Shown: positions 8,885-11,334 of the stretch, piece after piece
Layout: the number at the start of each line of letters is the position of its first letter
Numbering within the stretch: position 1 is the stretch's first letter
NCBI GenBank assembly: GCA_964291285.2
Contig: OZ219785.1
Coordinates: 352,001 to 416,000 of the forward strand
Source of the DNA: Alphaproteobacteria bacterium
GTDB taxonomy: Bacteria > Pseudomonadota > Alphaproteobacteria > Bin95
Direction of reading: 5' to 3'
Length of the DNA stretch: 64,000 nucleotides
Made by a program: the position numbers and the translations under genes
Notes under the pieces: generated by a model
What the model was told of the DNA's origin: nothing
Databases searched by the model: none
What the model saw: only the letters and a program-made list of their open reading frames with translations

Positions 8885-9495
8885 CATTTCCACGAAACAT
8901 GAAATATTTCCAATATTTTTGACTTCTGTTCGTGTTTTGATCTTGACATCTGGCGGATTGTGATATGATGGTCCCCAGGGAAGCGGACTCCGGAGCCGCG
9001 TCCCCGGGTGCCGCGCGGCCGAGCGACGCCGGTTTCTGAAAACCCGTGAGAAGCCGACGGGAGACGTGCGTCCTGCGTCTCGCGCGCGCAATCAGGCGCG
9101 CGAACCGCGCCGGCGCCGACACGCGCCCGGGCAGGCGCGGGCGCCCGCGCAGGATACGCGCGGAAAAGGGACCCCCTCCCCGTCGGAGAAGAGAGGAGAG
9201 ACGATGACCGCAACCGACCCCCAACTGGCCGCGATGCCGGCCGAAAAGCTGGCACCCGCCGCAGAGGCCCTTGCCAGCGCCTATGCGGAGGATAGGAGCG
9301 CAGCGCCGGCGGGTGGCAGCGCATGCTCCTCTTCCGCCCGGCGGGGGAGGAGGTCGAAGAGCGGAAAGCCCCATGCCCGAAACGGCTACAGCATATGAAC
9401 CCTGCGCATGCAGAACATGACATCTCATGACATATCGGAACACATGGCGAAGGAGGCCGGGCGCGCCTCATGACAAAACATGACATCCCATGACA
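8885..9495 (+). repeat. Dispersed element copy A (promoter, conserved leader 9059-9170, RBS + 64-aa ORF 9204-9398, CATGACA arrays)
   Basis: Shares GCGCAATCAGGCGCGCGA core and flanks with 23990-24110 and 37455-37577; CATGACA at 9416, 9426, 9469, 9479, 9489. Confidence 0.8.
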
Positions 9496-9579
9496 CGCAG
9501 GGGGTTCCTGCGACCGGGCGGCTTCGCGCGCGCCGCTTGCCAAACCGGGCCGGACGGAGTATCCCGCCGGCCTCGGCGA

Positions 9580-9654
9580 GACCCCATCGTCTAGAGGTTA
9601 GGACACCACCCTTTCAAGGTGGAGACACGGGTTCGATCCCCGTTGGGGTCACCA
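9580..9654 (+). tRNA. tRNA-Glu (anticodon TTC)
   Basis: GACCCCA/TGGGGTC acceptor stem, CCACC-CTTTCAA-GGTGG anticodon arm, GTTCGATC T-loop, encoded CCA; TTGCCA-17-TATCCC promoter upstream. Confidence 0.96.
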
Positions 9655-9688
9655 CGCGGCACACCCCTCGCCAGGAGGCGCAACCCCC

Positions 9689-9910
9689 ATGTCCGAGCGG
9701 ACCCTGTCCATCGAATACTGCGTGGCTTGAAACTACTAGCCGCGCGCCCTCCGTGCGAGGGACATACTGCAGGCGAACACCGGCCTTGCCGTGGAACTGG
9801 TCAAGGGCGGGGGCGGCGTCTTCGAAATCCGGCGGGACGGCGCGACGCTGTTCTCCAAGAAGGCGACGGGGCGCTTCCCCACCGACGAGGAATTGCACGC
9901 GCTGCAATAG
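9689..9910 (+). CDS. SelT/SelW/SelH (Rdx family) selenoprotein, CxxU, with an extra in-frame TAG (recoded or pseudogene)
   Basis: AGGAGG RBS; MSERTLSIEYCVA(TGA)NY(TAG)PRALRARDILQANTGLAVELVKGGGGVFEIRRDGATLFSKKATGRFPTDEELHALQ. Confidence 0.85.
9747..9761 (+). promoter_or_regulatory. Candidate bacterial SECIS hairpin
   Basis: CCCTC-CGTGC-GAGGG; apical loop with GU starts 22 nt after the UGA. Confidence 0.5.
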
Positions 9911-9915
9911 CCCGC

Positions 9916-11334
9916 ATGCGCCGCCCGACATTTCCCGCATGGCTTCTGGCGGCGCTGCTGCTGGCCGCCCAGCCGGCGCATGCCCATGAACCGCGCGCGA
10001 CCGTCCCGGGTTCCGCGGAACAGCTGCGGCTCTCCTTCGCTCCAGTGGTGCGCGCCGTCCGGCCTGCGGTGGTCAACATCTTCACGACCGGGCGCAGGGT
10101 CGAGCGCCGGTCGCCCTTTTCCGGCTTTCCCTTCCTCGACGACCCCTTCTTCCACCGCTTCTTCGATTTCGGCGACCGGCGGCGGCAGCGGGCGCAGAAT
10201 TCGCTCGGCTCCGGCGTGGTCGTCGGCGCGGACGGGCTGATCGTGACCAACCACCACGTCATCGAGAATGCCGGCGCAATCAAGGTCGTGCTCGCCGACC
10301 GGCGCGAGTTTCCGGCAAAGGTCGTGGCTTCCGACGAACGCAGCGACCTCGCCCTCCTCCGGGCCGGGCTCGACGGCGCAACGCTCCGGCCGGCGGTACT
10401 CGGAGACTCGGACGGCCTCGAAGTCGGCGACCTCGTGCTGGCGATCGGCAATCCCTTCGGCGTCGGCCAGACGGTGACCTCCGGCATCGTCTCGGCGCTG
10501 GCGCGCACCGGCCCCTCGGCGCGCGGCCCCGGCTATTTCATCCAGACGGACGCCGCCATCAATCCCGGCAATTCGGGCGGCGCCCTGGTCAATCTGGCCG
10601 GCGAGGTCATCGGCGTGAACACGGCGATCTTCTCCCGCAGCGGCGGCTCGCACGGCGTCGGCTTCGCCATCCCGTCCAACCTCGTGCGGGTCATGGTCGA
10701 GACCGCCCGGAGCGGCGGGCGCGTCGTCCGGCCCTGGCTCGGCATCGAGAGCCAGCCGGTGACGCCCGACCTCGCGGACACGCTCGGCCTTGCCCGGCCG
10801 GGCGGCCTTCTGGTCCGGGCCGTGCGCCCCGACGGGCCGTTCGCGCGCGCCGGCGGGGCGCGGGGCGACGTCATCCTGTCAATAGACGGGCACCCGGTAC
10901 TCGACAGGGCGGCGCTGCGCTTCCGCATGACCACGCTCGGGCCGGGCGGCGAGGCCGAGTTCGGGATCGTCCGGCGGGGCGAGGAGGCGGTGCTCTCCGT
11001 TCCGGTGGAGCTTCCGCCGGAAGTGCCACCGCGCGACCGCAGGCAATTGCGGGGGCCGCATCCGCTCGCCGGCGCCGAAATCGTCAACCTGTCGCCGGCG
11101 GTGATCGAGGAGTTCGCCTTCAGCGGGCCCGGCGCCGGCGTGATGATCGCGGAGGTGGCGCGCGGTTCGCCCGCCCGGCGGCACGGCTTCCGGCCGGGCG
11201 ACCTGCTCCGCAGCATCGACAGGCAGGAGCCGGAGAGCACGGCCGAGGCGGAGGCCATTTTGCGGGCTGGCGAGCGTCCGTGGCGCATTTCGATCTGGCG
11301 CGGCGGGCGTTCGCTGACGACAATCTTCCGATGA
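9916..11334 (+). CDS. DegP/DegQ (Do family) periplasmic serine protease
   Basis: Signal peptide, VTNHHV, IQTDAAINPGNSGG, two PDZ regions. Confidence 0.93.
   Translation: MRRPTFPAWLLAALLLAAQPAHAHEPRATVPGSAEQLRLSFAPVVRAVRPAVVNIFTTGRRVERRSPFSGFPFLDDPFFHRFFDFGDRRRQRAQNSLGSGVVVGADGLIVTNHHVIENAGAIKVVLADRREFPAKVVASDERSDLALLRAGLDGATLRPAVLGDSDGLEVGDLVLAIGNPFGVGQTVTSGIVSALARTGPSARGPGYFIQTDAAINPGNSGGALVNLAGEVIGVNTAIFSRSGGSHGVGFAIPSNLVRVMVETARSGGRVVRPWLGIESQPVTPDLADTLGLARPGGLLVRAVRPDGPFARAGGARGDVILSIDGHPVLDRAALRFRMTTLGPGGEAEFGIVRRGEEAVLSVPVELPPEVPPRDRRQLRGPHPLAGAEIVNLSPAVIEEFAFSGPGAGVMIAEVARGSPARRHGFRPGDLLRSIDRQEPESTAEAEAILRAGERPWRISIWRGGRSLTTIFR

Follow-up and report, generated by a model that had tools for sequence, protein, structure and literature searches.

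A SelW-like selenoprotein gene that very probably carries a recent nonsense mutation three codons past its selenocysteine codon

Selenoproteins of the CXXU SelW-like type form a long-known bacterial family, which outnumbered every other selenoprotein family in the Sargasso Sea data (PMC1088965). Its members (PF10262; TIGR02174) are proteins of about 70-75 residues with an N-terminal CxxU, a thioredoxin-like fold and a presumed thiol/selenol redox function, and in their genes the UGA is followed by a small hairpin with a G in the apical loop; the bacterial SECIS element is described in PMC1088965 as a stem-loop close to the 3' side of the UGA whose small apical loop includes a G. Loss of selenoproteins in bacteria, SelW-like ones included, is also a described pattern (PMC1794560, Table 4). 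That work deduces losses from genes missing in sister genomes, and its main text nowhere uses the word "pseudogene". Finally, a delta-proteobacterial symbiont of Olavius algarvensis uses UGA for selenocysteine (Sec) and UAG for pyrrolysine (Pyl), that is, both stops can be recoded in one organism (PMC1976440).

The gene reported here shares the length, the CxxU motif, the UGA-hairpin arrangement and the presumed function of the SelW-like family; what sets this copy apart is the premature TAG at its codon 17, because of which it probably yields no protein. The case looks like a selenoprotein loss of the kind described in PMC1794560, caught early; it differs in that the genome retains the gene and has an otherwise intact Sec trait that is in use. 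Unlike the Olavius algarvensis symbiont, this genome has no Pyl system as judged from PylS and PylD models and from ARAGORN.

Direct translation of positions 9689-9910 (plus strand) of the window (the whole stretch of DNA that was analysed, 64,000 nucleotides) gives a frame of 73 codons plus a stop, which reads MSERTLSIEYCVA, an internal stop, NY, a second internal stop, PRALRARDILQANTGLAVELVKGGGGVFEIRRDGATLFSKKATGRFPTDEELHALQ and the terminal stop, its N-terminal part thus being MSERTLSIEYCVA-TGA-NY-TAG-PRA. The original prediction had described this frame as led by a ribosome-binding site, 73 codons long and absent from the list of open reading frames, and all three points (the AGGAGG, the codon count and the missing entry) were seen again; the frame is absent from that list, which holds frames of at least 40 aa, because it is interrupted. 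The second in-frame stop three codons past the UGA, also part of that prediction, was found at 9737-9739. The features of the gene and its neighbors are as follows.

9580..9654, plus strand: tRNA-Glu(UUC), directly 5' of the SelW-like gene (ARAGORN; Rfam tRNA, 68.1 bits)
9673..9678, plus strand: Shine-Dalgarno-like AGGAGG, 10 bases 5' of the SelW-like ATG (direct reading)
9689..9910, plus strand: Rdx/SelW-like selenoprotein gene (predicted), 73 codons before the terminal TAG, with an interrupting stop at codon 17 in this genome
9689, plus strand: ATG start codon of the SelW-like gene (direct reading)
9719..9730, plus strand: CxxU redox motif, TGC GTG GCT TGA, read as Cys11-Val-Ala-Sec14 (direct reading)
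9719-9721, plus strand: Cys codon TGC, Cys11 (direct reading)
9728-9730, plus strand: TGA, codon 14 (predicted Sec), first internal stop of the SelW-like frame
9737..9739, plus strand: premature TAG, codon 17, with T at 9737 for the G of the presumed ancestral GAG (Glu)
9908-9910, plus strand: terminal TAG of the SelW-like gene (direct reading)
9916..11334, plus strand: Do/DegP-family serine endopeptidase gene (TIGR02037, 428 bits vs. a cut-off of 416.2)

The ATG of the Do/DegP-family gene lies 5 bases past the stop of the SelW-like gene, and therefore the two are probably co-transcribed; a RarA-like ATPase gene comes next after the protease gene. On the other side, a tRNA-Glu(UUC) gene adjoins the SelW-like orthologue in 13 of 16 same-genus loci as well. 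The intergenic stretch 5' of the tRNA (9400-9510) is a member of a dispersed repeat family, with 113 blastn matches in this genome (some of 87-97% identity across about 90 bases) and a summed contig depth in the thousands in the three public sequencing runs (X1-X3) that are used below.

With TGA read as C and TAG as X, the frame matches the Pfam Rdx model PF10262 over residues 6-70 (E 1.1e-15; 58 bits vs. a cut-off of 22.6), which is far above chance, and the NCBIfam model TIGR02174 (CXXU_selWTH) with 50 bits (cut-off 34.2); that is, the curated cut-offs of both families are passed. The score against a narrower equivalog, NF041051 (SelTWH_Campy), was 80.6 bits and under the cut-off of 88. The CxxU motif near the N-terminus is common to this gene and the 24 orthologues viewed, and the frame is, the Sec codon aside, interrupted by the TAG at codon 17, where orthologues have Glu or Lys. 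These matches place the gene within the known bacterial family of SelW-like (Rdx) selenoproteins, as an ordinary member.

A six-frame search of 60 relatives found a SelW-like orthologue in 36; 35 of these carry a single TGA, located at the matching position, and the remaining one has no stop there. Within the genus, the gene is under purifying selection (mean pN 0.057 vs. pS 0.244; 136 pairs among 17 sequences, codons 14 and 17 excluded). The genome from which the window was taken (G000; 6.13 Mb in 5 contigs, 68% G+C) encodes selA (535 bits) adjoining selB (436 bits) on contig 3, selD (277 bits) and a tRNA-SeC(tca) detected by ARAGORN, with all three protein genes above curated cut-offs and without internal stops, and hence the check for Sec machinery suggested in the original prediction came back positive for selA, selB, selD and tRNA-Sec alike. 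The selD match (L002, G000:C2:1357981-1358862) sits in an open frame of 747 residues vs. a model of 311 positions, which suggests a fusion with another domain.

A composition-based scan of the genome for coding frames interrupted by TGA, followed by NCBIfam searches on ten candidates, found family models spanning the TGA in eight of them. These are four UGSC-family genes (L273, L277, L279 and L280), two of which exceed the cut-off (127.9 and 140.1 vs. 125 bits); an AhpD-related CFYUT gene (L274, AhpD_rel_CFYUT; 458 bits vs. a cut-off of 175, with the model running across the TGA); and two PrdB/GrdB-like genes (L272, L281) and one glutaredoxin-like UxxC gene (L278), all under cut-off. NCBIfam gave no match for L275, a candidate with a WUPYC motif, and L276 was rejected as a TGA-containing gene, being two separate genes. 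This leaves nine candidate selenoprotein genes outside the window, each with an in-frame TGA located at a redox motif; three of them exceed NCBIfam cut-offs. Gene finders would probably truncate such genes. The model for Sec-containing formate dehydrogenase (TIGR01553) had 14 matches in this genome, none above cut-off and none with an internal stop. On the strength of these gene models, Sec decoding is used elsewhere in this genome.

The element expected to direct Sec insertion was found at the following positions.

9728..9762, plus strand: UGA-plus-SECIS core of 35 bases, conserved at the nucleotide level including synonymous sites
9747..9761, plus strand: predicted SECIS apical hairpin, stem CCCUC (9747-9751) / GAGGG (9757-9761), loop CGUGC (9752-9756), RNAalifold consensus

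The predicted hairpin has a 5-bp stem that starts 16 bases past the UGA and a small apical loop with a G in it, as described for bacterial SECIS elements. The 35-base core is the same in all 16 same-genus orthologues save for codon 17 and one CCC for CCG. To view the hairpin in a wide range of sequences, we turned the core into a degenerate search pattern, with codon 17 free and all four combinations allowed at one variable stem pair, and it matched 211 loci in public contigs (109 from genomes and 102 from metagenomes). From 164 distinct sequences, an alignment of 95 was made (the window plus 94 loci differing by at least 8 bases), on which RNAalifold returned only the CCCUC-CGUGC-GAGGG hairpin, with 100% of cells paired. 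The variable pair, 9750-9758, is UA in 71 and GC in 24 sequences and broken in none of the 95, and its pair score was reached by none of 500 shuffles; the other four stem pairs are fixed by the search pattern and carry no covariation information. In one locus obtained from the protein search (L036), a second stem pair is likewise altered on both sides. The change at 9750-9758 exchanges Leu and Arg at codon 21 on one side and is synonymous (Arg AGG/CGG) on the other, a pattern that matches the prediction for RNA constraint. The hairpin with a GU-containing loop that the original prediction had seen downstream of the UGA is thus present, with a pair that covaries.

An Rfam scan of 9000-10500 (E up to 1) matched no SECIS family, the tRNA being the sole convincing match. 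Single-sequence prediction (z -2.35) indicated that GCGUGGCU (9720-9727) is able to pair with AGCCGCGC (9738-9745), with the UGA in the loop, and these bases are shared with the 14 same-genus orthologues that have GTG GCT and CCG CGC there. We do not regard this lower helix as conserved in the SECIS, since only 54.9% of cells are paired across the 95 loci.

Because the family models, the conservation of the UGA, the covariation in the hairpin and the complete Sec machinery agree, the frame is called a SelW/Rdx selenoprotein gene of the CxxU type, as originally predicted, and the UGA at codon 14 is, by these comparative lines of evidence, a real Sec codon.

Codon 17 presents a different picture. 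Among the 16 same-genus orthologues it is GAG in 14, GAA in one and AAG in one, and it is GAG or GAA in the seven further relatives viewed; six loci (L038-L043) of 30 were left out of this letter view, each having one TGA and no TAG. A TAG within the SelW-like gene was found in none of the 36 matching relatives. Across the 211 pattern-matched loci, codon 17 encodes Glu in 193 (GAG 103, GAA 90), Leu in 10, Lys in 5, and Arg, Ala and Gly in one each, and is a stop in none. Since all same-genus orthologues have a sense codon and none of the 211 loci a stop, we read the TAG as GAG with a G-to-T change at 9737 and, on the genomes and loci compared, as private to this genome. The TAG falls in the spacer that separates the UGA from the hairpin and leaves both intact. 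Codon 17 aside, comparison of the gene with its nearest orthologue gives 3 synonymous changes and 1 non-synonymous change, and hence the lesion is recent. The bases C at 9718, C at 9767 and C at 9778 also set this strain apart from its nearest relatives. The search for orthologues that had been proposed in order to see whether the TAG is conserved therefore speaks against recoding, all close orthologues having a sense codon; of the origins considered originally for the UAG, a recent nonsense mutation one change from GAG stands, a second recoding event is unsupported, and a sequencing error is the less likely account.

The reading that we favor, and regard as very probable, is that this is a SelW-like gene with a recent nonsense mutation (GAG to TAG), a very young pseudogene rather than a doubly recoded gene. 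In the relatives, SelB and the Sec-tRNA(UCA) would read UGA14 as Sec, directed by the hairpin 16 bases downstream, to make a CxxU redox protein of 73 residues. In this genome, a single G-to-T transversion at 9737 would have turned Glu17 (GAG) into UAG, so that ribosomes inserting Sec would meet an amber stop three codons on, where RF1 would release a 16-residue peptide without the whole fold; ribosomes failing to insert Sec would stop at codon 14, and no Rdx domain would be made either way. We infer termination at UAG17 and hence loss of function of the gene. Early termination might also lower coupled translation of the protease gene 5 bases past the normal stop, which is speculation on our part. 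The start, the ribosome-binding site, the CxxU motif, the SECIS and the remaining codons are all intact, with no decay besides the TAG, which fits a recent event and also a gene that is still used.

It is possible, although we consider it unlikely, that the T at 9737 arose as an artefact of sequencing or assembly, or that a minority variant prevailed in the consensus, the gene itself being intact with GAG. The raw-read check that the original prediction had proposed was carried out on contigs, namely those of the three public runs that contain the greater part of the stretch (X1-X3; three samples of one study under one organism label, hence not fully independent, and one run maybe the assembly's own source), compared over 9400-10200; of the low-share runs X4-X23, only X12 entered the comparison. 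In each run, a 1023-base contig matches 9607-10200 (594 bases) with no differences and with T at 9737, at depths of 150.6 (X1), 152.4 (X2) and 429.1 (X3); the presence of the T on the main contig of three runs disfavors a one-off assembly error. A fourth run, under another organism label, has a 563-base contig of about 91% identity with G at 9737. What speaks for an artefact is that the change is of a single base, that the genome is scored as 4.77% contaminated, so that mixed material is possible, and that a further short piece with G at 9737 is found in all three runs (depth 62.5, 56 and 400.8 in X1, X2 and X3, respectively). There is also a third piece covering 9737 in X1-X3, with depths of about 38, 43 and 58 by subtraction, for which the base letter is not displayed.

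Depth-bin arithmetic places the G piece and the third piece exactly on the 9728-9762 core that is conserved across species, and their depths track those of two diverged contigs that bear a tRNA-Glu (58.9, 53.7 and 335.7 for the one; 30.1, 37.3 and 58.9 for the other). The G piece does not stem from another copy of the core within this genome, in which blastn detects no such copy and no other match longer than 16 bases. Because the G piece is confined to 9728-9762 and its depth follows that of a diverged contig, it is most likely the conserved core of other organisms in the same samples. In a 31-mer de Bruijn graph, an allelic SNP branch spans about 61 bases, whereas the G piece has 35, which argues against the artefact as well. 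A minor G allele may nevertheless exist in this strain, because contigs drop minor variants. That is, the check on contigs returned the T on the main contig of each run, together with the short G piece.

If the TAG is real, it might still be leaky, with near-cognate readthrough giving some full-length selenoprotein and the allele being a hypomorph rather than a null; we hold this to be quite improbable. The undamaged remainder of the gene, the presence of only 3 synonymous and 1 non-synonymous change vs. the nearest orthologue outside codon 17, and the recurrence of the T allele in three samples of one study would all suit such leakiness, but RF1 is present, a suppressor tRNA was not found among the tRNAs of this genome, and a stop at codon 17 is tolerated by no other of the 211 loci. 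Further, Sec insertion is itself inefficient, and therefore very little protein would come through two such steps in succession.

No sign was found that UAG is decoded in this genome. RF1 is present (492.6 bits vs. 423), and TAG terminates 2095 of the 8201 open reading frames of at least 300 codons, as well as the SelW-like gene itself, which agrees with the original view that a global reassignment of TAG is unlikely. Decoding of UAG as Pyl needs pylS, pylBCD and a tRNA-Pyl(CUA); the best PylS match in this genome has 25.5 bits (cut-off 178), the best PylD match 22.1 bits (cut-off 150), and none of the 56 tRNAs listed by ARAGORN has a CUA anticodon. The same list has, in addition to the usual tRNA-Cys(GCA), a tRNA-Cys with anticodon ACA, and three copies each of tRNA-Ser(CGA) and tRNA-Arg(CCT), and the tmRNA (tag ANDNEVALAA) is asterisked in the output, which we take to denote the permuted, two-piece form.

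A first genome-wide count of coding-like frames interrupted by a stop gave 374 for TAG, 178 for TGA and 37 for TAA. The apparent excess of TAG was rejected, since by base composition most of these frames run antisense to real genes; after a sense-frame filter, 81 TAG, 121 TGA and 12 TAA interrupted frames were left (a crude scan, with no homology check), and the 81 TAG cases look like same-frame neighboring genes or repeats. Three identical elements (G000:C2:503094, C2:266268 and C5:59015, minus strand) have frames of 278 and 1015 codons split by a single in-frame TAG (QRPRF-TAG-IVAGRRP), and a different unit of 35 + 35 codons (AYAFVSATV-TAG-VAVEPGAT) is present at least five times in this genome; both are probably mobile or repeated elements.

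Translation of UAG17 through context-dependent readthrough near the SelB-bound SECIS, or through an unrecognised suppressor, is something to which we give very little credence; if true, one 73-residue protein would involve two stop recodings within four codons, and the readthrough would be the reason for the retention of the allele in three samples. Least credible of all is a programmed second recoding, with UAG as pyrrolysine or read by a dedicated suppressor and two recoded stops within four codons, as it has in its favor only the intact rest of the frame and the position of the UAG beside a recoding signal, and against it the failure to find PylS, PylD or a CUA tRNA, the presence of RF1, the lack of TAG at this codon in the 36 relatives and the 211 loci, the common use of TAG as a stop in this genome and at the end of this very gene, and a crude scan that left only same-frame neighbors and repeats once antisense frames were removed.

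We return, therefore, to the recent nonsense mutation as the preferred reading, which has little importance beyond annotation. Gene finders miss the SelW-like gene because of its UGA, and it would best be annotated as a pseudogene of the SelW-like selenoprotein type, or as intact should the T be an error; the 35-base UGA-plus-hairpin core is a handy exact-match probe for the SelW-like genes of this clade. The gene would be a clean example of a selenoprotein loss that has gone no further than one mutation, while the genome otherwise continues to use selenocysteine.
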